Assembly: GCA_022825065.1 (NCBI GenBank)
Contig: JAJDYR010000018.1
Coordinates: 33,606 to 97,605, forward strand
Source: a bacterium
Lineage (GTDB): Bacteria; UBA8248
Reading direction: 5' to 3'
DNA: 64,000 bases
Below the pieces are notes generated by a model. The model searched no databases and was not told the origin of the DNA. It worked only from the letters and a program-made list of their open reading frames with translations. Shown here piece after piece: positions 13,641 through 40,484 of the stretch; the stretch's first letter is position 1, and each line of letters opens with the position of its first letter. The position numbers were made by a program, and so were the translations under genes.

Positions 13641-13967
13641 TGCCGTTATCCTGGAGTCCATGAGCGCGACTCCCCGGCGGGAAAAAGCCCCCCTGAGGAG
13701 GTCAAACGCGAGCGGGGAACGGGTGTCGAACGCGACTGGTGAAGGAGCGATCGAAGATTTTCCGGAAGGGTTCGCCGCCCTCACTCCCGCTCCATCGCCG
13801 CATCCCATGAGAAAGCCTCTTCTTCCTGCGCACCGGTCCGCCGGGGAAAACCCCTTCCCCGCGTCGCGCGCACGATACCGCAGTCCGCTGTTTCGGGAGT
13901 GACGGCAATTGCGGGGAAATGCGGGTTGATTTCGAGAGGGCGGGGTTGTTGAAAAATTTCATCAAAG

Positions 13968-14092
13968 GAGCAACCCCCCCTACCCCCCCTTGTCAGGGGG
14001 GTATAAAAAGGCAATGCGCCCCTGCCGGGCTGAGGGGGTTTTGATTTTTCTTGCCCCCCTGACAAGGGGGGGTAGGGGGGGTTGGTTTTCGA
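13968..14092. repeat. MITE-like inverted-repeat element, copy A
   Basis: Left arm AACCCCCCCTACCCCCCCTTGTCAGGGGGG and right arm CCCCCCTGACAAGGGGGGGTAGGGGGGGTT are reverse complements flanking a ~50-bp spacer (tataaaaaggc..gcgcc..gggctgagggggttttgatttttcttg). Confidence 0.8.
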
Positions 14093-14276
14093 GTCGAGTG
14101 GGGACGACCGTAGCGGACAGCCCCCGCGCCGCATGTGCAAGTTCGATTGCGCACCCCGCGGCGGGGAAGCTATGATGCAGCCGCCATCGCGCGCATCCGC
14201 ACACTCACTGTTTTCCGGAAGCGGTTCGGGGTTTTCCTGAAACAGCCCGCCGGATTGTTGAAATTCCACCTTCTAC

Positions 14277-15278: not shown

Positions 15279-15339
15279 GGGTGAAGGACAACCACGGGGG
15301 TTCGGAGGGAATCACGTTTCACTCGCTCTCCCTCGGCTT

Positions 15340-15532
15340 GAAAACCAACCCCCCCTACCCCCCCTTGACAGGGGGGTATAAAAAGGCGATGTGCCCTCGC
15401 TGGGTTGAGGGGGTTTTGCTTTTTCTCGCCCCCCCAGCACCACCATACTTGAATCATCGCGCCATTTTAGCTGAGGGGGGTTTGATTTTTCTTGCCCCCC
15501 TGTCAAGGGGGGGTAGGGGGGGTTGCCTTTAT
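15340..15532. repeat. MITE-like inverted-repeat element, copy B (with internal partial duplication)
   Basis: Same terminal inverted repeats as copy A, including the gaaaaccaacc left flank and ggttgcctttatc right flank. The spacer contains a duplicated gggttgagggggttttgc segment. Confidence 0.8.
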
Positions 15533-15587
15533 CTCCTGAGGAGGAGGAGTGAATTTCTTCTGCTGAGTCGCGGTTGAGCTTTGCCCT

Positions 15588-15724
15588 TGCTCGTCATTCC
15601 GGCGTATGCCGGAATCCAGGGACTTTGCTTTTGCATTTGTCTTTTCGCTTTATCGTTTTTCTTGGTTATCCTGCGATTCGGTGTTCCCGTCTGCCCTGGA
15701 TTCCGGCATACGCCGGAATGACGG
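15588..15724. repeat. Long inverted repeat (29-bp arms, ~80-nt loop) between the AKR and cupin genes
   Basis: Left arm gtcattccggcgtatgccggaatccaggg (15588-15616) is the exact reverse complement of ccctggattccggcatacgccggaatgac (15696-15724). Each arm is internally palindromic. Confidence 0.6.
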
Positions 15725-15801: not shown

Positions 15802-16203
15802 ATGCCGGTGACGAATTGGGACGAACTGCCCGTGAAGGTGCCGTTCCCGGGGGTGGAAGTGGGCCTCGTGAGCGGGAAGCACTGCATGATCAGCTACATC
15901 CACGCGAAAGGCGGGAACTCCACCCGCAGGCACCACCACGAGGCGGAGCAGATTTTCTGCCTCATCAGCGGCTCCGCCCGCGTGCAGGCGGGCGACGACC
16001 CGGTGGCGGTGCTGAAGCCGGGCGACGTCTGGTACGTGCCGCCGCACACCGAGCACCAGGCGGACTACCTCGAAGACACGGTGGCCTTCGAGGCCGCAGG
16101 CCCCATCCGCCTGGACAATTTCGCGGGCTACCTGCACGAGGACACGCATTTCGTGGATCAAAGAGACCTCGCGGCGGACATGGAGCGGGAACAGGCCGGG
16201 TAG
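15802..16203 (+). CDS. Cupin-domain protein
   Basis: 133 aa with the cupin two-His motif region (HHHEAEQIFCLISG ... PGDVWYVPPHTEH). Last ~10 codons plus the stop (AADMEREQAG*) are shared with the Rieske gene's 3' end. Confidence 0.7.
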   Translation: MPVTNWDELPVKVPFPGVEVGLVSGKHCMISYIHAKGGNSTRRHHHEAEQIFCLISGSARVQAGDDPVAVLKPGDVWYVPPHTEHQADYLEDTVAFEAAGPIRLDNFAGYLHEDTHFVDQRDLAADMEREQAG

Positions 16204-16239: not shown

Positions 16240-16412
16240 GTAGGGGTCAGACATATATGTCTGACTGCGTGTCCGCCCTTTGGGGTCACATATCTTGTCA
16301 TCTCGTAGTATGGCGGAGAGATAAAACCGGGCGGACACGCAGGTCCGCCCCTACGGTTTCGTTTCAATGTGCGCCTTTCTCGTAGGGACAGGCCCCTGTG
16401 CCTGTCCGGGGT
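16240..16412. repeat. Cluster of REP-like palindromic units with GTAGGG heads
   Basis: Units: gtaggggtcagacatatatgtctgac; gggcggacacgcaggtccgcccctac; gtagggacaggcccctgtgcctgtccgggg. Related units occur at 19293-19448, 23058-23176, 23901-24016, 34341-34373 and 40485-40658. Confidence 0.65.
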
Positions 16413-16569: not shown

Positions 16570-16992
16570 ATGACGGAATTCGAAACCGCAACCCTCGCAA
16601 TCCAGCAAGCCACCCTCGCGGCGCAGCAGGCCTCCGTTTGGGTCGCCGCTCTCGTCGGGGCCGCGCAGTGCTCCCTGATCGCGTATGGCCTCTACTTCAT
16701 GCGCCAGGCCGCGCGTCACCGGGATGCCCAGCACCGCGAAACCATGGAGGCGATGGATCGCAGTCACCGCGAATCCATGGAGGTGATGGATCGCCGGCAT
16801 CGCGAATCCATGGAGGTGATTGAAGGCCGGCACCGCGAACACATGGAGGGGATTGACAGCCGGCACCGCGAACACATGGCGGCGCTGGCCGTCCAGCGCG
16901 AGGCGGAAAAAGATCGGCACCGCGAATCCATGGCGGCGCTTGCAGACCAGAGCGAGGCGCTCAGGGAACTCATACGGCGCACCTCACAATAG
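16570..16992 (+). CDS. Membrane-anchored protein with tandem 11-residue repeats (HRESMEVMDRR-type), unknown function
   Basis: Hydrophobic segment VWVAALVGAAQCSLIAYGLYFMRQAAR, then at least 6 tandem 11-aa repeats (DAQHRETMEAM / DRSHRESMEVM / DRRHRESMEVI / EGRHREHMEGI / DSRHREHMAAL ...). A paralog with the same architecture sits at 63584-64000. Confidence 0.55.
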   Translation: MTEFETATLAIQQATLAAQQASVWVAALVGAAQCSLIAYGLYFMRQAARHRDAQHRETMEAMDRSHRESMEVMDRRHRESMEVIEGRHREHMEGIDSRHREHMAALAVQREAEKDRHRESMAALADQSEALRELIRRTSQ

Positions 16993-17194
16993 CATTCGCA
17001 CGAGAATCGGACGTTTCACGAGGTAGAGCGGCCATAGAGAGCCGCCCTGCTGCAGGTTCGTTTCGAAACGCGGGAGATGCGCAGCCGGACAGGGCAGGGG
17101 CCGCATTCATGAATCAATCGACGTTGACTCGCCGGTAAGTGAATTTGAATTTGGAGGGACAGATCGCGACCTGTCCCTACCCCTCTCTCGGCTT

Positions 17195-17330
17195 GAAAAC
17201 CAACCCCCCCTACCCCCCCTTGTCAGGGGGGCAAGAAAAAGCAAACCCCTCTCAGCATGGCGGGGACGCATCGCCTTTTTATACCCCCCTGTTAAGGGGG
17301 GGTAGGGGGGGTTGCCTTTATCCCCTGAGG
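17195..17330. repeat. MITE-like inverted-repeat element, copy C (spacer in opposite orientation)
   Basis: Same terminal inverted repeats. The spacer is the reverse complement of copy A's spacer. Confidence 0.8.
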
Positions 17331-19464: not shown

Positions 19465-19600
19465 GATTGGTCGGAAAACCAACCCCCCCTACCCCCCCTT
19501 GTCAGGGGGGTATAAAAAGGCGATACGCCCCCGCAGGGTTGAGGGGGTTTTGCTTTTTCTTGCCCCCCTGTTAAGGGGGGGTAGGGGGGGTTGGTTTTCA
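19465..19600. repeat. MITE-like inverted-repeat element, copy D
   Basis: Terminal inverted repeats with GAAAACCAACCCCCCC / GGGGGGGTTGGTTTTC extensions. Confidence 0.8.
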
Positions 19601-19942
19601 AGGCGGGGAGGCGAGCGCGTCCGGTCAAGAAAAAAAGGGCCGACACCCCTCGAAGGGCTGCTTTCAGGGGTTGTTGAAAAACCCCCGAGTGTGGGAACTG
19701 CTGCGACACATTCCCCGAGGTGCAGGCCGAGTCGGGGTGTCGGCTGCTTTCATGAAACGCGAACAGGGGCTGCCCGTTGTTCCCGTTCCCGGCTCGAGGA
19801 CTCAAACTCACAGCAAGGAGCGGTACAGTTTGCTCTATCACGAGGGAAGCAACCAACGGGCAACCCCCTTTTCGCTCTTTCCTTCATCTCGCCTTGGACC
19901 CCGGGGCTAGAGCCCCGAGGCCGAAGGCATTCTGCTCTTCTT

Positions 19943-22498
19943 CTATTCCTTCATGTAGCGCGTGCCGAATGCGCCGGCTACTGCGCCATTAGAGAAATTC
20001 GAGTTGAACTCACCCACCAGAACTGGGGGCGGTGCTACACCAGTTCCAACAGCCTCACCATCACCGGAGAATGTCCCCGACCAAGTGGACGTATCAGATG
20101 CCATGCCCTTTGATGTTCCGGTAATGCTGGCAGAACTAAGAACACCAGATGCGGTCGCCATGGTTACTTCCCACTCGTTGGCCTCTCCGCCTGATAGTTC
20201 AAAGTCCGAAATTGTCCCATGCACGGAATTGTGTTTGTCTGCGGCCACGGAAGTCTCTGCCCCGAAATAAGCCGTAAGGGCTACGTCCGCCGTGAACGTT
20301 CCTGCAGACCTGGCATCAAGAGAATTATCTGGATTCACGGTGTTGTAAACGTATACTCCGTGAGCGCCACCTTCATATTTCGCGCTTCCAGCTACAACAC
20401 TTCCTATATTCGTATTAGCGTCAAGACTTGAACCAGCGAAAGTCTGAACGGCATCGTAGGTGGTTTTGCCATCCTTGACGGTTTTCATGAGCCAGAAGCC
20501 ATAGTGCAGGTAATCATCATCCGCTACGGATACCATGGCCCCTGCGTCTGGCTTGAACTGCCATTCGCCCGTAATAGTGGTTATTTTCCCGTCCGCGTCG
20601 GTGACTGCCGTACAAGCGGCATTCACACATTCGAATGTTCCAGCCGCACCATCAAAAGTTCCCCTAAACTCACCTTCATTTCTATTTTCGGTTGTAGTGT
20701 CATCAGCAGGCAAGTTTGTGGTAGTAGTAGGCGCACTTGATATTCTGCTGGAAGCTACCTTGCCCACATCCGCCGTTTCGTCCAATTCATATGTGGTGCG
20801 TTGGTCACCAGTCCTCTCTGGGTCAGCGTCTCCCACCGTAAGAGTATACACAGAACTAAACGGCTCTGATTCAGGCGCCTCAATATCTGTCATGACACTT
20901 ACTATTTCTGAAACTCCTTTTCCGTTATCACGGACATACTTACCGTCCATCATCACGAACTTGGGGTCATTTTTCAGTGGCAAGGCAGGGTCCGTAACTT
21001 CTACCGATACAGAACCACTTTTATGAGAAATCTTCAGGGTATATTGATCGGCGGCATCAGTATCATCGAATGCCGGCGAGGTGGCGTCAGGCGTGGCGGT
21101 TGATTCAGCCGTTATGGCATCCGCTTTAGTCTTGACCATTTCATTCATAGCCTTTTTCGCAGCCGCCGCTTCCTCCATTTCTTCTTCTTCACGCCTCTTT
21201 TCTTCAGCTACTCTATCGGCCTCTTCCTTGGCGGCTACAACCATTCCGGCGAAACGCTCAACCGCAGCTTTTGCGGTCTCGGCTTTAGCCTGGGCGGCTT
21301 CCGCGTCAGCCGATGTAGTGGCGGCCGCGGCTTCATCGTTCGCGGCTTTCGCGTCCGCGACGGCATCTTCCGCCCGCGCGTAAGAGGCTTCGTCAGCAGC
21401 TTTCTGCTCATCCGTGAGGGCCGCAAGCGCCGCCTTCGCGTCCATGTACGCCTGCATGGCGGCCCCCTGCGCGGTCGAGAGCGCGGTCGCTTCCATGTGC
21501 GCGACCGTCACCATGCTAGCGTATTTCCTGGCATCGGCCAGCGCGCTTTCGGCGGCCATCTGGGCGGCTTCCGCATCCGCCGCTGTTTCGGCATTTTCCG
21601 CCCTTACTTTCGCGGCAAGCGCGTCCTCGAGAGCTCTCATGGCTATGTTGTAAGAAACGGAGTCGGCATCGCCTTGGCCCGCGATTGCATCCAGTGCAGC
21701 CTGCGCGGCATTAGCGGCCACTTCCGCGGCACCACGAGCGACTCTTATAGCGGACATTTCGGCCGCCAGATTGTCGGCAGCCGTTTTCGCGTCCGCTACC
21801 ATGTCGGCGTATCTCTGGACATCTGCGAGCGCGGCTTCCACGTCCGCCTGGGCAGCCTTCGCGGCTTCCGATGTGGTTGCCGCGTTCGCCATTGCGAGTG
21901 CTTCTTGAGCGGCCTCGTTCGCGACCTTGGCTCTCACGTATGAGTCGATGTCATGGGCTTTATTCGCCTCTGCGTCCGCCAATAAACTGGCCGCCATATC
22001 GGCCGCAGTCTTTGCGGCTTGCTTGGCGGTATCGAGCGCCATGGCTTCTTGCTGCCGATCCATTTCTGCCTGATCGGCCGCGGTCTTCGCGTCCGCTACC
22101 ATGCCGGCATACTTTTCAGCATCCGCTTGGGCCGCTTCTGCTTTCGCCTGCTCCGCCTTCGCAGCTTCCGATGTGGTTGCGGCTGCGGCCGCGTCACTCG
22201 CGGCTTTCGCGGCCGTGAGAGCGATTCGGGCTGCAGCATATGAGTCTGGATCGACACTCGCATCCGCCATCACGCCATCGACCGCCGTCATGGCAGCCGT
22301 ATACGCCGCCTTGGCGGCATTCTGCGCGGCTTCGAGAGCGGCGGCCTCGGCCGCGATCTCCTCATCCGTCGGGCCGGTCATCGGCGGTTCTGCCGTTCCG
22401 CTACCTCCGCCGCCGCCGCAGCCCGCCAGCGTCAGCGCGAACACGGCCGCCAGCGCGAAAGCGTAGAACTTGTGAATATACTTGTGTTTGAACTTCAT
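19943..22498 (-). CDS. Surface lipoprotein with Ala-rich internally repeated coiled-coil region and TbpB-like C-terminal beta-barrel domain
   Basis: Lipobox LTLAGC after the signal peptide. ~4 internal repeats of ~100 aa (TTSEAAKA..EKYAGMVADAKTAAD), also visible as DNA repeats at ~21700-21850 and ~22020-22160. C-terminal 300 aa is Gly/Ser/Thr-rich and ends ...GEFNSNFSNGAVAGAFGTRYMKE, like TbpB/fHbp-type handle-barrel lipoprotein C-termini. The 3' third of the gene is ~50% GC against ~65% locally. Confidence 0.75.
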   Translation of the reverse strand: MKFKHKYIHKFYAFALAAVFALTLAGCGGGGGSGTAEPPMTGPTDEEIAAEAAALEAAQNAAKAAYTAAMTAVDGVMADASVDPDSYAAARIALTAAKAASDAAAAATTSEAAKAEQAKAEAAQADAEKYAGMVADAKTAADQAEMDRQQEAMALDTAKQAAKTAADMAASLLADAEANKAHDIDSYVRAKVANEAAQEALAMANAATTSEAAKAAQADVEAALADVQRYADMVADAKTAADNLAAEMSAIRVARGAAEVAANAAQAALDAIAGQGDADSVSYNIAMRALEDALAAKVRAENAETAADAEAAQMAAESALADARKYASMVTVAHMEATALSTAQGAAMQAYMDAKAALAALTDEQKAADEASYARAEDAVADAKAANDEAAAATTSADAEAAQAKAETAKAAVERFAGMVVAAKEEADRVAEEKRREEEEMEEAAAAKKAMNEMVKTKADAITAESTATPDATSPAFDDTDAADQYTLKISHKSGSVSVEVTDPALPLKNDPKFVMMDGKYVRDNGKGVSEIVSVMTDIEAPESEPFSSVYTLTVGDADPERTGDQRTTYELDETADVGKVASSRISSAPTTTTNLPADDTTTENRNEGEFRGTFDGAAGTFECVNAACTAVTDADGKITTITGEWQFKPDAGAMVSVADDDYLHYGFWLMKTVKDGKTTYDAVQTFAGSSLDANTNIGSVVAGSAKYEGGAHGVYVYNTVNPDNSLDARSAGTFTADVALTAYFGAETSVAADKHNSVHGTISDFELSGGEANEWEVTMATASGVLSSASITGTSKGMASDTSTWSGTFSGDGEAVGTGVAPPPVLVGEFNSNFSNGAVAGAFGTRYMKE

Positions 22499-23040
22499 TT
22501 AGTGAGTCCTCCTGAATACATAGAAAAAGGGATTTTCAGTGAATTTCCGGCTTTCTCCGATTAACCTCCTTTCCTTCTCGATATACGGGCCTTCACAAAC
22601 TGGTCATTCGTATTTCGGGCCGCCCGGAGGACGGCGGACTTGCGGCCTCATCGTCCGGGCTGGTATGAACTCTTTCCGCGACACACGAATTCCTGAGGTA
22701 TGCGCGCACCTTTCTTTGGTCTCCTAAGGCGAGCGGTCTGCCCGCCGCTAATTGTCGTTACGGGACGCCGGAAGCCCCGTTCTCCGCCGGGAGAGCCGTT
22801 CCGGGGCGCGCGCGGGCCGCGAATGAGCGAAAAAAGACGGAAAACGGCGCCCGAAAACTCCTCCCGGGACCCCGGAATTGCGCTTGACATGGTTTTGAGA
22901 GGTGTTATATTGTCTGATAACGACAATTATCGGATATCAAGAAGCCATTTCGGTCATAACCGGCCGCCGCCGTCATGCCTGCGTCGGACATAGATGCGGA
23001 TGACGGCCCTTCATGTATCGCTGAACCCCGGCATGACGAT

Positions 23041-23200
23041 TGAAAGCCGCAGCCGCCGTAGGGGCCGTTCGTGAACGGCCCTTGTCGGAGAAGCGGGCGG
23101 TTCGCGAACCGCCCCTACGGGTTCGTTGCGATTTGCGTGGTTGTTGTAGGGACAGGCCTCCGTGCCTGTCCGGGGTCGCGACCTGTCCGAGGCCCCCGCG
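23041..23200. repeat. Composite REP-like cluster (left direct repeat flanking hicBA)
   Basis: gtaggggccgttcgtgaacggcccttgtcggagaagcgggcggttcgcgaaccgcccctacgggttcgttgcgatttgcgtggttgttgtagggacaggcctccgtgcctgtccgggg. Near-identical composite recurs at 23885-24030 in the same orientation. Confidence 0.7.
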
Positions 23201-23389
23201 CCTGTTCTTGCGATTCCGCAACCGCAGATGGCCGTCATTGTGATACACTCTGCCGCAGACGTGGATCGGCGGCTCCTGAATGATCGTCGTGTAGAGCCGC
23301 CGTATAAGTTCGGACGAACGCTTGAGGGCCGGGCCCTGGAGGTGAAGATTGCTGAATTTGCCCGATGTCGAGCGTAGGGAGGGGAACCC

Positions 23390-23593
23390 GTGAAACTCAA
23401 GGTAGTCGTTCACGAGGCGGAAGAAGGTGGATATTGGGCCGAGGTCCCGGCTGTTCCAGGGTGTGCGACGCAGGGAGATACGTTCGAGGAGTTGTTGAGC
23501 AATCTCTACGAGGCGGTCGAAGGGTGCCTCTCCGTGGACGTCCAGGAGGTGGACGTTTCGGGCGCGGGCAGGGTCGTCGAGATCGCCGTGTGA
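23390..23593 (+). CDS. hicB: Type II toxin-antitoxin system HicB-family antitoxin (UPF0150-like)
   Basis: MKLKVVVHEAEEGGYWAEVPAVPGCATQGDTFEELLSNLYEAVEGCL matches the HicB N-terminal RNase H-like domain pattern (V.EPEEGGY.V..P.LPGC.TQGDT.EEAL.N..EAIE). Confidence 0.8.
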   Translation: MKLKVVVHEAEEGGYWAEVPAVPGCATQGDTFEELLSNLYEAVEGCLSVDVQEVDVSGAGRVVEIAV

Positions 23594-23796
23594 AAATCGT
23601 CAGTGGAAAGCGCTTTTGCCGCATACTGGAAGCGAAGGGCTGGAAACTGGCGCGCACCCGCGGCAGTCACCGCATTTACGCGAAACGGGGTTCGGACATC
23701 CGCATCTCGGTGCCGGTGCATGGCGAAGCGTCGCTCAAACGCGGCTTGCAGAGGCATCTCATGAAGCTGGCGGATATCAAGGATTCCGAACTGTAG
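23590..23796 (+). CDS. hicA: Type II toxin-antitoxin system HicA-family mRNA interferase toxin
   Basis: GTG start overlaps the hicB stop (GTGA). VKIVSGKRFCRILEAKGWKLARTRGSHRIYAKRGSDIRISVPVHGEASLKRGLQRHLMKLADI matches the HicA/YcfA consensus (G.E..K.L...GW.L.R..GSH....). It is the C-terminal part of track ORF 23365..23796. Confidence 0.8.
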   Translation: MKIVSGKRFCRILEAKGWKLARTRGSHRIYAKRGSDIRISVPVHGEASLKRGLQRHLMKLADIKDSEL

Positions 23797-23884
23797 GCCA
23801 GGAGCAAGGACGACGCAATATATCCACCCTTATCGGCCCTGGCCAACCTGTTGGTTGTCACCGACATTCACCGGAATGACGAAC

Positions 23885-24030
23885 AAACGTCGCAGCCACC
23901 GTAGGGGCGGTTCGCGAACCGCCCTTGCCGGAGAAACGGGCGCTTCACGAAGCGCCCCTACGGGTTCGTTGCGATTTGCGTGGTTTCTGTAGGGACAGGT
24001 CGCGACCTGTCCAGGGTCTCTGCGCCTGTC
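23885..24030. repeat. Composite REP-like cluster (right direct repeat flanking hicBA)
   Basis: gtaggggcggttcgcgaaccgcccttgccggagaaacgggcgcttcacgaagcgcccctacgggttcgttgcgatttgcgtggtttctgtagggacaggtcgcgacctgtccaggg. Confidence 0.7.
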
Positions 24031-24044
24031 GAAGGGGACGCCCG

Positions 24045-24215
24045 AAAACCAACCCCCCCTACCCCCCCTTGTCAGGGGGGTATGAAAAAGCGACACCCCA
24101 GCGAAGGGAAAAAGCGACACCCCGGCGAAGGGGGAAAAGAAAAGAAGGTCCCCCCGACAGGGGGGAGCAAAAAAAGACCCCCCTGACAAGGGGGGGTAGG
24201 GGGGGTTGCCTTTAT
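24045..24215. repeat. MITE-like inverted-repeat element, copy E (1.5-copy variant)
   Basis: Left arm, then a spacer with an extra half-arm (ccccccgacaggggggagcaaaaaaagacccccctgacaagggggggtagggggggttgcctttatc). Confidence 0.8.
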
Positions 24216-24247
24216 CCCTTGTTAAGGGCGGCCACGGAGGGCCGCCC

Positions 24248-25501
24248 CTACGCCTCCGGCGCGGTCGCCGCCTCCACTTCGGCCGGATGAATCTCGGCGA
24301 AGGAATGATCCCTGGTCCGCCCGTCCGCTTCGAAATCGATGATCTCGGTCTCGCCGATGACCCTGTCGATCATCTCCCGGACGGGCAGGCGCGATTCCAG
24401 CCCGCGCAGGTGGCCCGCGTGGGAGCGGATGGCGGGGTGCTTGGGGACGAACAGCGAGCAGCAGTCCTGGTCGGGCTCGATGGAAATCTCGAACGTGCCG
24501 AGCGCTTTCGCCCCCTCGATAATCTCGTCCTTGTCCATGCCGATCAGGGGCCTCAGGATCGGCATCCGCACCGCGTCCTCGATGGTGGCCAGGTTCTGGA
24601 GCGTCTGGCTCGCGACCTGTCCCAGGCTCTCGCCGGTGACGAGGGCGCGGGCGTTCTCGAACCCGGCGATTCGCTCCCCGATGCGCGTCATGAACCGGCG
24701 GTAGAGGACGACGCGGTACTCGGGCTGCGTGGCGAGGACGATCTCTTTCTGCAGGTTGCCGAACGGCACCATGTAGAGCCTGCTCCCCAGCTGGTAGCCG
24801 TTCAGAACGCCGGCCAGGTCCTTCGCCTTCTCGGCGGACGCGCGGCTGAGATAAGGCGCGCCGTGAAAGTGGATGAACACCACCTCGCAGCCGCGCTTCA
24901 TGACCCGCCAGGCGGCCAGGGGGGAGTCGATGCCGCCGGAGAGAAGCGCCGCCGCCTTTCCGAGCGAGCCTGTGGGCAGGCCGCCGGGGCCGGGGATTTT
25001 CTCGGCGTACACCCAGGCCTCTTTGGGGATCACTTCCACGTGCACCGTGAGCCCCGGGCGATCCAGGTCGACGGGCAGGTGTCTTCTGGCCTGGATCGCG
25101 GCGCCGATGGCCCTGTCCCACTCCCGCGTGCTGACGGGCGTGGCCGGGAAGGATTTCCGGGTCCGGACGCGGAAGCTTTTGGTTTTAAGAGGAGCGATCA
25201 TTTCGAGCGCCGTTTGCGCCGCCGATTCGATATCGAGCGGAACGCTTCGCGCCCGGGCGAAATAGGCGACCCCGAATACTTTCCCGAGGGCCTCGATGAG
25301 AGCGCCGGGATTTTTCAGGCCGCTCGCTTCCAGAATCAGCCTTCCCGTGCGTTTCCTGACTTTGGCTTCACAGAATAAAGAGGCCGCGCGCTCGATCCGC
25401 TTCGAAAGGCGCTCGATGAAGAGCGGACGGTTCTTCCCCTTGAGGCCGATCTCGTCGTAATGGATGAGGATCGAGACGTCTTTCGGCTCACCGGAATTCA
25501 C
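24248..25501 (-). CDS. thiI: tRNA 4-thiouridine(8) synthase
   Basis: THUMP domain plus PP-loop ATPase (SGGIDSPLAAW); typical ThiI length. Confidence 0.9.
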   Translation of the reverse strand: MNSGEPKDVSILIHYDEIGLKGKNRPLFIERLSKRIERAASLFCEAKVRKRTGRLILEASGLKNPGALIEALGKVFGVAYFARARSVPLDIESAAQTALEMIAPLKTKSFRVRTRKSFPATPVSTREWDRAIGAAIQARRHLPVDLDRPGLTVHVEVIPKEAWVYAEKIPGPGGLPTGSLGKAAALLSGGIDSPLAAWRVMKRGCEVVFIHFHGAPYLSRASAEKAKDLAGVLNGYQLGSRLYMVPFGNLQKEIVLATQPEYRVVLYRRFMTRIGERIAGFENARALVTGESLGQVASQTLQNLATIEDAVRMPILRPLIGMDKDEIIEGAKALGTFEISIEPDQDCCSLFVPKHPAIRSHAGHLRGLESRLPVREMIDRVIGETEIIDFEADGRTRDHSFAEIHPAEVEAATAPEA

Positions 25502-33527: not shown

Positions 33528-33680
33528 GGGGATAAAGGCAACCCCCCCTACCCCCCCTTGTCAGGGGGGTCTTTTTTTGTTCCCCCCTGTCGGGGGGACT
33601 TTTTTTCTTTTACCCCCTTCGTCGGGGTGTTGCTTTTTTATACCCCCCTGACAAGGGGGGTAGGGGGGGTTGGTTTTCAA
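33528..33680. repeat. MITE-like inverted-repeat element, copy F (variant spacer shared with copy I)
   Basis: gataaaggcaaccccccctacccccccttgtcagggggg ... cccccctgacaagggggggtagggggggttggttttc. Confidence 0.8.
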
Positions 33681-33736
33681 GGCGAGAGGGCATCCTTCGA
33701 TACGGCGCTTGCGCGCCTACTCAGGATGAGGTGGAT

Positions 33737-34387: not shown

Positions 34388-34540
34388 GGCAACCCCCCTC
34401 TTGTCTGAGGATAAAGGCAACCCCCCCTACCCCCCCTTAACAGGGGGGCAAAAAATGCAAAGCCCCCTCAGCCCGGCGAAGGCGCATCGCCTTTTTATAC
34501 CCCCCTGACAAGGGGGGGTAGGGGGGGTTGCCTTTCAAGA
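34388..34540. repeat. MITE-like inverted-repeat element, copy G
   Basis: Left-arm partial duplication (ggaaaggcaacccccctcttgtctgaggataaaggcaaccccccctaccccccc) and the canonical right arm. Confidence 0.8.
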
Positions 34541-36998: not shown

Positions 36999-37200
36999 CC
37001 GGAAAGGCAACCCCCCCTACCCCCCTTAACAGGGGGGTAAAAAAAGACGATGCGCCCCGCCGGGCTGAGGGGGCTTTGCTTTTTCTTTCCCTCCTGACGA
37101 AGGGGGTAAAAAGACGACGCCCGCTGACGGAGGGGTTTTTGGTTCTTCATACCCCCCTGACAAGGGGGGGTAAGGGGGGGTTGCCTTTATCCCCTGACTA
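36999..37200. repeat. MITE-like inverted-repeat element, copy H (1.5-copy variant), ending 40 bp upstream of the molybdoenzyme start codon
   Basis: ggaaaggcaaccccccctacccccttaacagggggg ... atacccccctgacaagggggggtaagggggggttgcctttatcccctgactaagggggg. Confidence 0.8.
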
Positions 37201-40191: not shown

Positions 40192-40279
40192 CCTGTCCGA
40201 GGTCGCGATTTGTCCTATCGGTCGGATTTGAAATTCACTCCCCCCTTGAGTGGACTGTTGAAAAAGCATTTATCAAAAG

Positions 40280-40425
40280 AATAACCCCCCCTACCCCCCC
40301 TTAACAGGGGGGTCTTTTTGTTGCTCCCCCCTGTCGGGGGGACCTTTTTTTCTTTTACCCCCTTCGTCGGGGTGTTGCTTTTTTATACCCCCCTGATAAG
40401 GGGGGGTAGGGGGGGTTGCTTTTCC
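40280..40425. repeat. MITE-like inverted-repeat element, copy I
   Basis: Same arms. The spacer variant matches copy F (ggggggtctttttgttgctcccccctgtcggggggacc...). Confidence 0.8.
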
Positions 40426-40484
40426 AGTCGAGGATGATCACCACCGTCATCCGGCGGCGGGATTCCGTCTTGCCGCGCATTGGT

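Follow-up and report, generated by a model that had tools for sequence, protein, structure and literature searches.

The stretch of DNA considered in this work (hereafter the window) consists of 64,000 nucleotides (nt) from a UBA8248 bacterium (assembly GCA_022825065.1, contig JAJDYR010000018.1, positions 33,606-97,605 of the forward strand), whose chromosome is Nitrospinaceae-related, and the element of interest in it is a hicB-hicA (hicBA) toxin-antitoxin (TA) gene pair, which is bracketed by direct repeats made up of repetitive extragenic palindromic (REP) sequences. Our analysis indicates that hicBA is an accessory HicAB cassette, and that recombination at REP arrays dispersed along the chromosome is the probable cause of its relocation, loss and exchange. 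Among syntenic relatives, the hicBA core is found in at least four or five REP-filled spacers located within ~10 kb, and it is missing from the entire neighbourhood in nine relatives (L089-L093 and L095-L098). An earlier note on this DNA, made from its sequence alone, had suggested a movable accessory cassette, and the syntenic relatives, which carry hicBA at other intergenic sites or are without it, agree with this suggestion.

The relatives compared were eight ENA metagenome contigs of 1-3.4 kb with exact HicA/HicB proteins (L001-L008), a Nitrospinaceae metagenome-assembled genome (MAG; L009), a 4.39-Mb chromosome-scale MAG contig (L010), which is syntenic with the window at 90-96% identity in blastn, and ten further syntenic loci (L089-L098) obtained by exact look-up of the neighbouring cupin protein; the genome scan yielded at least two close genomes. 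Exact-protein look-ups of ThiI and the aldo-keto reductase gave no record, probably due to differences in the called start codons. The flanking genes of the syntenic relatives are 92-98% identical, and the placement of the cassette in them was determined from blastn maps and element maps. The sites at which hicBA is found are as follows:

Site A, the gap between a lipoprotein gene and thiI: the window and L007 (in L002 the right flank agrees as far as thiI, and in L001 it is the right flank alone that agrees)
Site B, immediately 3' of the cupin stop codon: L004, L010 and L008
Site C, a position in the REP cluster at 16.4 kb, 5' of the small gene 16570-16992: L005 and L006 (from two TARA samples)
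Upstream of the aldo-keto reductase gene: L009
The slot between the Rieske and methylmalonyl-CoA (MM-CoA) mutase genes: L003

In L004, the cassette at site B stands in place of the window segment 16208-17195, and occupation of this site is also seen on the chromosome-scale contig. The arrangement at site A in the window is given below:

22961..23055, plus strand: resident site-A leader; it ends in CCCCGGCATGACGATTGAAAGCCGCAGCCGCC, and its last ~30 nt open the left direct repeat
23028..23205, plus strand: left composite repeat, with the leader end, a REP doublet (23056-23120), a linker (23119-23142) and an A-type REP array (23146-23205)
23208..23389, plus strand: non-coding 5' leader of the cassette; it starts TTGCGATTCCGCAACC..., has the Shine-Dalgarno sequence GGGAGGGG just 5' of hicB and is present at every site
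23390..23593, plus strand: hicB, a 67-aa HicB/UPF0150-type antitoxin without a DNA-binding domain (PF21748, PF15919)
23590..23796, plus strand: hicA, a 68-aa HicA toxin with a GTG start and an RGSH motif (PF07927)
23797..23898, plus strand: cassette tail; it ends in CACCGGAATGACGAACAAACGTCGCAGCCACC, is present at sites A, C and E and is shortened in L003, L004 and L008
23871..24029, plus strand: right composite repeat, with the tail end, a REP doublet (23899-23963), a linker (23962-23985) and an A-type REP array (23989-24029)
24226..24251, minus strand: G-type REP, whose GTAG head includes the thiI stop codon; right limit of the variable spacer

The cassette core of ~0.63-0.70 kb comprises the 3' arm of an A-type REP, the 182-nt leader (aligned in 8 copies), hicB, hicA and the ~100-nt tail. 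The left junction is constant in all copies, consisting of the A-type REP 3' arm (8-nt loop, CCTGTYC) followed by TTGCGA and the leader, and a GTAG-headed A-type array lies upstream of the cassette at every site. The right end is imprecise: it falls at ~23805 in L003, ~23816 in L004 and ~23821 in L008, and at 23886-23898 in the long forms, so the right ends differ by up to 90 nt and the fixed ends of an IS200/IS605-type or other transposon are not observed. The REP doublet and the linker accompany hicBA at site A only, and at the other sites nothing beyond the A-type REP 3' arm on the left and the ~100-nt tail on the right goes along. In the more distant copies the leader is 77-82% identical to that of the window. 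The leader of L004, in which the cassette occupies another site, is identical to it at 182 of 182 positions, whereas the flanking genes are ~97.5% identical, and this difference suggests a recent exchange.

The two flanking clusters were detected in a repeat search as a direct repeat of 129 nt (23028-23156 and 23871-23999, 87% identity), which resumes past a 19-nt indel (23174-23205 and 23998-24029, 84%); a gapped alignment of 23028-23205 with 23871-24029 gives 136 matches and 19 mismatches (87.7%). The earlier note had described these flanks as near-identical units of ~140 bp, but they are less similar than this implies and the repeat is ~160-178 nt long, starting ~30 nt ahead of the first REP. 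Each copy contains a GTAG-headed REP (23058-23081 and 23901-23924), its inverted partner (23095-23118 and 23938-23961) and a GTAGGGACAGG-headed REP, which begins at 23146 in the left copy and at 23989 in the right copy; the left A-type array has the form GTAGGGACAGG-loop-CCTGTCC plus two 'stutter' units. The three palindromes assigned to each cluster in the earlier note are all present, with the correction that the first two together make up one hairpin. In these doublets (23056-23120 and 23899-23963), 26-nt arms that are 88% complementary are separated by a 13-nt spacer, and as single-stranded DNA the doublet folds as one 65-nt hairpin (dG -27.2 kcal/mol, z -4.8). Two inverted REPs with a short spacer, forming one long hairpin, is the architecture of REP doublets forming hairpins (REPINs); the window contains two such doublets, and another was located in L010 (12722-12800). 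The description of the flanks as clusters of REP-type, GTAG-headed palindromes joined by a common linker is upheld. The 24-nt linker GGGTTCGTTGCGATTTGCGTGGTT is the same to the letter in the two copies and has no other occurrence in the window, a result which 0 of 100 shuffles could equal.

If the composites and hicBA formed a single unit, as had been proposed, then they should be found together at orthologous loci. However, each of the two kinds of locus that the earlier note had named as refuting such a unit is found in part. The right composite in L001 is the same as in the window, but hicBA there has a different left cluster. Site A is empty of hicBA in L010, L091 and L093, and in L010 this empty site has kept the resident leader and also a composite whose linker is that of the window copies; a composite is also present in L093. 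The resident leader (22961-23055) is conserved in L010 and L093, and it resembles the terminus of a GTCATTCCGGC...GCCGGAATGAC terminal inverted repeat (TIR) element. As the doublet and linker do not go along with hicBA at the other sites and the composites belong to a dispersed family, the proposal of one unit is not sustained.

The dispersal of this family is evident from the remainder of the window, where ~21 GTAGGG-headed, GC-rich hairpins are grouped in a few intergenic spacers:

15.25, 16.2-16.45, 17.16, 19.3-19.45, 23.0-24.25, 33.8 and 40.5-40.6 kb: REP-bearing spacers

Two REP types are dominant, viz. a G type (GTAGGGGCGG...CCGCCC) and an A type (GTAGGGACAGG-N6-8-CCTGTCC); GTAGGGACAGG occurs 10 times in the window versus 0.6 expected, and the REP stems vary between copies with palindromy kept. 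A recurrent composite consists of a G-type REP in inverted orientation, a ~27-nt linker and an A-type REP; at least five such composites are present in the window (16325, 19365, 23090, 23933 and 40560), and eight composites, with the L010, L001 and L005 copies, align throughout. These composites are a dispersed family similar to bacterial interspersed mosaic elements (BIMEs), with alternating REP orientation and conserved linkers. The right composite of site A is 92.6% identical to a composite elsewhere in L010 versus 87.7% to the left copy, and this weakens the possibility that the two repeats are a local duplication made by insertion. The 'stutter' units (loop, CCTGTCC and GRGG, without a 5' arm) are found in 19 of 126 A-type cores of the lineage, most of them far from hicBA. 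It was also observed that the TAG stop codons of thiI (24248-24250) and the cupin gene (16201-16203) lie inside GTAGGG REP heads, with a REP hairpin directly after the stop codon in the case of thiI.

The gene pair itself, with its GTGA junction, was correctly recognized in the earlier note, as is now supported by Pfam and by independent gene calls on the metagenome contigs, which give identical products of 67 aa and 68 aa. The product of hicB matches PF21748 (E 3.9e-7) and PF15919 (E 9.7e-7), i.e. UPF0150/HicB_lk_antitox, a domain of the partial RNase-H-like type found in HicB N-termini, and that of hicA matches PF07927 (HicA_toxin) over model positions 1-58 of 58 (E 4.5e-15). In the 4-nt junction the GTG start of hicA overlaps the hicB stop codon, and hicA is indeed hidden in the mechanical list of open reading frames (ORFs), where it is merged into ORF 23365-23796. 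The HicA domain has a fold like that of double-stranded-RNA-binding proteins, and the HicA sequence TRGSHRIY includes the conserved Gly-Ser-His motif, whose His we take to be catalytic. The nearest solved chains for HicB are TTHA1756 (2yzt, E 6.5e-5) and the N-terminal domain of HicB 6g1c/6g1n, while a search of HicA against PDB sequences gave nothing at E <= 0.01 and no NCBIfam model matches either protein. The window HicB, being 67 aa long and covering positions 3-47 of 123 of the HicB_lk profile, lacks the C-terminal DNA-binding domain (ribbon-helix-helix or helix-turn-helix) that serves autoregulation in characterised HicB proteins, and it belongs to the short UPF0150 subgroup. Judged by sequence, hicBA is predicted to be a type II HicAB module of the ordinary kind, serving addiction or defence. 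It is like the Burkholderia pseudomallei HicAB (6g1c/6g1n) and the short UPF0150 proteins TTHA1756 and TTHA1013 in its full-length HicA domain with GSH, its HicB N-terminal fold and its overlapping two-gene operon; however, in contrast to characterised HicAB systems, the antitoxin gene comes first.

Across the copies, hicB is nearly invariant (95-99% nucleotide identity), and decay of the toxin is seen in L003, where the start codon of hicA is lost (GTG to GTA), and in L010, where the end of hicB and all of hicA are replaced by a REP. These losses of hicA, with hicB kept, are indirect support for the predicted toxicity of HicA and its neutralisation by HicB. A consensus scan of the 182-nt leader gave no promoter, and manual candidates are weak and not conserved. 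The cassette tail contains a promoter-like sequence on the minus strand (23846-23817, TTGGCC-18-TATATT, 9/12) that points into hicA and is partly conserved in L005; from this consensus match it possibly gives rise to antisense transcription. ORF 23162-23377 was considered as a third gene and rejected, having no Pfam match and a stop codon in L001.

We infer that recombination, either RecA-type or by template switching, is the agent that has moved the cassette. hicBA lives inside REP/BIME-like arrays, with which many intergenic spacers of the chromosome are filled, and its flanking direct repeats are two members of the dispersed composite family rather than cassette-specific ends. Since many spacers contain REP arrays of the same orientation, these arrays would constitute homology patches of 25-180 nt, and these patches, together with replication-stalling hairpins, could let short segments be deleted, swapped between spacers or strains, or copied by template switching, with microhomology joins now and then. 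This process would account for the differing spacers of hicBA from strain to strain, its loss from most of them and the decay of the toxin gene in some. As the site A composites are direct repeats, hicBA should be prone to deletion from this site. The REP hairpins downstream of hicA probably serve as an mRNA 3' end or stabiliser.

Recombination with occasional illegitimate joins is favoured over a transposon with defined ends because the right ends vary, because the right composite is nearer to the L010 copy, because the small gene 16570-16992 also shifts from one spacer to another, and because of the makeup of the L003 copy. The flanks of L003 match L089 and L090, in which the Rieske-MM-CoA mutase slot carries a REP array and the small gene. 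In L003, this slot is instead occupied by the cassette with a decayed cupin-gene fragment of 102 nt attached to it across the microhomology GAGG, and homology to L089 picks up again at a REP on the right. As the cupin gene is the neighbour of hicBA at site B, this fragment implies a donor like site B, from which more than the cassette itself was moved.

Regarding the small gene, it encodes a protein of 140 aa, which is hydrophobic in its N-terminal part, carries HRE(S/H)ME repeats and has no Pfam or NCBIfam match, and it is bracketed by composites at 16325-16411 and ~17030-17182. It is located in the cupin-Rieske gap in the window, L095, L096 and L005, and after the Rieske gene in L089, L090 and L092, while six other relatives are without it. 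Its distribution is that of a second relocating cassette.

Several observations weigh against recombination as the agent. The left junction (CCTGTYC/TTGCGA) is identical in all copies, and two GTAG-headed A-type REPs of like orientation enclose the cassette in four or five of the six informative copies, which is exactly what a hairpin- or GTAG-specific enzyme predicts. Several of the supporting contigs are short metagenome assemblies; the relatives include no clean filled/empty pair of near-identical strains, and the breakpoints cannot be placed to the base; and the deletion product to be expected, site A with one hybrid composite, is not seen as such among them. Further, the evidence that points to recombination consists of its presumed products.

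A rival explanation is a REP-associated tyrosine transposase (RAYT; Y1 type) encoded elsewhere in the genome, which would cut single-stranded DNA at the GTAG head of each of two A-type REPs in the same orientation, so that REP, leader, hicBA and tail are released and reinserted at the GTAG of another REP, with the REPs serving as ends of a non-autonomous element. This mechanism would account for the constant left junction with a GTAG-headed A-type REP immediately upstream at every site, for the same-orientation A-type REP downstream in the window, L001, L002, L005 and L010, and for the target REP on both sides of the cassette in L005. The GTAG motif is cleaved by RAYT in vitro, as reported in PMC3733652 (citing Ton-Hoang 2012 and Messing 2012).

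The search for a RAYT gene, which the earlier note had proposed, gave a divided result. In the window, L009, L010 and L089-L098, none was found by motif, tblastn and Pfam searches, those of the lineage DNA covering ~100 kb. However, the A-type REP was detected in at least 120 JGI metagenome contigs of varied habitats and GC contents, and among the 120 unrelated contigs listed, a RAYT-like Y1_Tnp gene (PF01797) is present at the REP in 8. Because Y1_Tnp genes adjoin the A-type REP in these contigs, the window repeats can be assigned, on sequence grounds, to the GTAG-tagged, RAYT-associated REPs as defined in PMC3733652 and PMC3333891. On the other hand, hicBA is found in none of the 120 listed contigs, and REPs lie on both sides in only 1 of 80 hicBA-homologous loci of other taxa; the lack of pairing in these two sets indicates that the association of hicBA with REPs belongs to this REP-saturated lineage. 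In four of the 8 contigs with a Y1_Tnp gene, a double-headed A-type REP (GTAGGGACAGG-N6-CCTGTCCCTAC) was also observed in frame inside the RAYT-like Y1_Tnp ORF, where it encodes VGTG..PVPT between the HUH and Tyr motifs:

L134, 9525-10016: in-frame REP within Y1_Tnp
L139, 2535-3104: in-frame REP within Y1_Tnp
L164, 684-1223: in-frame REP within Y1_Tnp
L171, 3504-4004: in-frame REP within Y1_Tnp

Mobilisation of hicBA by a RAYT is nonetheless considered unlikely, as no such gene is found in the window or the ~100 kb of lineage DNA searched, the right ends are not fixed, L004 is without a downstream REP, L003 carries the cupin-gene fragment joined by microhomology, and stuttered A-type arrays are common away from hicBA. 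We know of no REP element described as carrying cargo. If this explanation is true, REPs would here for the first time be seen to move a gene cassette and not themselves alone, and the gene 16570-16992 would be a second cargo.

It could also be argued that the position of hicBA between two independent REP clusters is a coincidence, and that its occurrences at other sites are separate imports or chimeric short-read contigs. Most of the local spacers are filled with REPs, so any small gene there would be bracketed by them; the HicB family is spread across phyla in the genome scan, which is consistent with frequent horizontal transfer; and the L001-L008 contigs are only 1-3.4 kb long. However, site B is confirmed on the chromosome-scale contig and site C in two separate samples, and all copies share a lineage-specific non-coding leader and tail (77-100% identity), due to which they should be regarded as one cassette lineage and not as separate imports. 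Further, the cassette DNA gave no match in plasmid and phage collections, and a 44-nt hicB probe gave 0 matches in JGI metagenomes, a collection without this lineage. In view of these results, a coincidence seems rather improbable, slightly more so than transposition by a RAYT.

The TIR elements that neighbour the cassette raise another possibility, viz. that a DDE transposase acting in trans on them has moved hicBA in the manner of a composite transposon. The first of these elements resembles miniature inverted-repeat transposable elements (MITEs) and is present in nine complete copies, one of which stands next to the cassette:

24041..24217, strand not assigned: G7-TA-G7 TIR element, MITE-like; it borders the right composite and is a neighbour of the cassette, not a part of it
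13962-14093, 15337-15534, 17192-17323, 19471-19602, 33530-33681, 34409-34539, 36999-37191 and 40273-40427: the other complete copies
Window 15593-15722, L001 56-190, L010 10283-10492 and L093 5789-5923: second small TIR element, GTCATTCCGGCGTATGCCGGAATCC ... GGATTCCGGCATACGCCGGAATGAC

The nine copies are 131-198 nt long, with ~37-nt TIRs built on CAACCCCCCCTACCCCCCCTTGTCAGGGGGG, internal terminator-like hairpins and no Rfam match (a scan of the entire window with Rfam gave no family). The element sometimes hosts nested elements, as in L091 and L093, and it is shared by two distant relatives (L147 and L201) among the matches listed for a REP probe in JGI metagenomes. Apparent relics of the terminus of the second element are seen where the site-A leader and the hicBA tail end (CCGGAATGACGA...). 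Mobilisation through such TIRs would be in keeping with the G7-TA-G7 element (in the same place in L001 and L002) adjoining the right side of the cassette in the window, L001, L002 and L004, with the resemblance of the tail end to the GCCGGAATGAC terminus of the second element, and with the activity of insertion sequence (IS) elements in this region in L010. However, no matching left TIR is present, the nearest upstream G7-TA-G7 copy being 3.4 kb off and past a large gene; no target-site duplications were seen at the cassette; and the conserved cassette runs to the left of the sole GTCATT match. The last of these observations excludes a cassette bounded by GTCATTCCGGC-type TIRs, and movement by a DDE transposase is on the whole very doubtful. 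The interpretation of hicBA as an integron-like gene cassette with the composites as attC sites is effectively refuted: TA cassettes are typical of chromosomal integrons, and hicBA is like those of the Vibrio superintegron (VCR/attC) in being a small TA unit bracketed by direct repeats (~120 nt in the latter) with internal dyad symmetry, but no integrase is present among ~50 window ORFs, of the core sites, RYYYAAC is missing and GTTRRRY is matched once, within hicB, the units lie scattered between core genes of either strand instead of forming a unidirectional array, and the repeats are GTAG-headed REPs.

Transposase, integrase and Y1 families are absent from the ~50 window ORFs scanned with Pfam, of which a few are without any match, and every Pfam-matched ORF is of core metabolism or housekeeping type (e.g. 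dxs, ispA, xseA, greA, rlmN, thiI and hydantoinase). Within this setting, the 14-24 kb stretch is an indel hotspot between conserved genes. IS insertions are found in the variable spacers of L010 (16210-17655; also L094, 4211-5479): site A carries a DUF772/DDE_Tnp_1 transposase, and a Transposase_mut gene is inserted in the gap separating the aldo-keto reductase gene from the cupin gene. L093 is without the Rieske gene, and L008 has, in the variable spacer between hicBA and the Rieske gene, a tRNA-Trp-like gene of 88 nt (538-625, anticodon CCA, ARAGORN), whereas the window has no tRNA. The gene on the left of site A (19943-22498, minus strand) encodes an 851-aa alanine-rich putative lipoprotein with no Pfam match, whose nucleotide identity among relatives is 78-87% versus 92-97% for its neighbours and whose called length in them ranges from 555 aa to >736 aa; it looks like a fast-evolving surface protein. 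Between this gene and the left composite, at 22884-22911, a near-consensus sigma-70 promoter with an extended -10 (TTGACA-16-TATATT, 11/12) is directed at the composite, and inverted 16-nt boxes (CCGCTAATTGTCGTTA and TAACGACAATTATCGG, at 22745-22760 and 22918-22933) flank it. This promoter is conserved in relatives without hicBA, and in L091 (11437-11545) a clean intrinsic terminator follows ~60 nt further on. It may belong to a small RNA gene or be a regulated divergent promoter, and in the window it could also read into hicBA.

The repeats described here are like the known GTAG REPs, BIMEs and REPINs (Di Nocera et al. 2013, PMC3733652; Ton-Hoang et al. 2012, PMC3333891; Bertels & Rainey 2011, PMC3116915) in being GC-rich palindromes of 24-26 nt with a 5' GTAG head that form extragenic clusters, and also in their alternating orientation, conserved linkers, inverted doublet hairpin and adjacency to Y1_Tnp in other organisms. 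They differ from known REPs in their Nitrospinaceae-related host, in the two REP types per composite, in the 3'-arm 'stutter' arrays, and in that an accessory gene cassette is embedded in the arrays and is relocating among them. In Pseudomonas, accessory genes are found in REP deserts (PMC3390384). A precedent for a TA module in a REP-containing hypervariable spacer is provided by ccdO157 in the folA-apaH gap of E. coli (work of 2009, summarised in PMC3184786). This is likewise a chromosomal TA module in a REP-containing gap between housekeeping genes, with presence/absence polymorphism and toxin decay in some strains. However, ccdO157, as described there, keeps to one site, whereas the unusual feature of the present case is a single cassette that, from one close relative to another, turns up in four or five REP arrays inside ~10 kb and abuts a REP arm each time.

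These results are of interest since REPs are usually taken as marks of old, stable chromosome, whereas here an addiction or defence module lies inside the arrays, as does a second small gene of like behaviour, with toxin-antitoxin decay seen in progress. If the mechanism is homologous recombination alone, then the locus would illustrate principles already known, and no new kind of element would be involved. The locus is a natural system, with complete genomes and with populations from several metagenomes at hand, in which one can ask whether REP/BIME arrays serve to shuffle small accessory genes through a core chromosome, as recombination sites that are portable or even as the ends of transposons.

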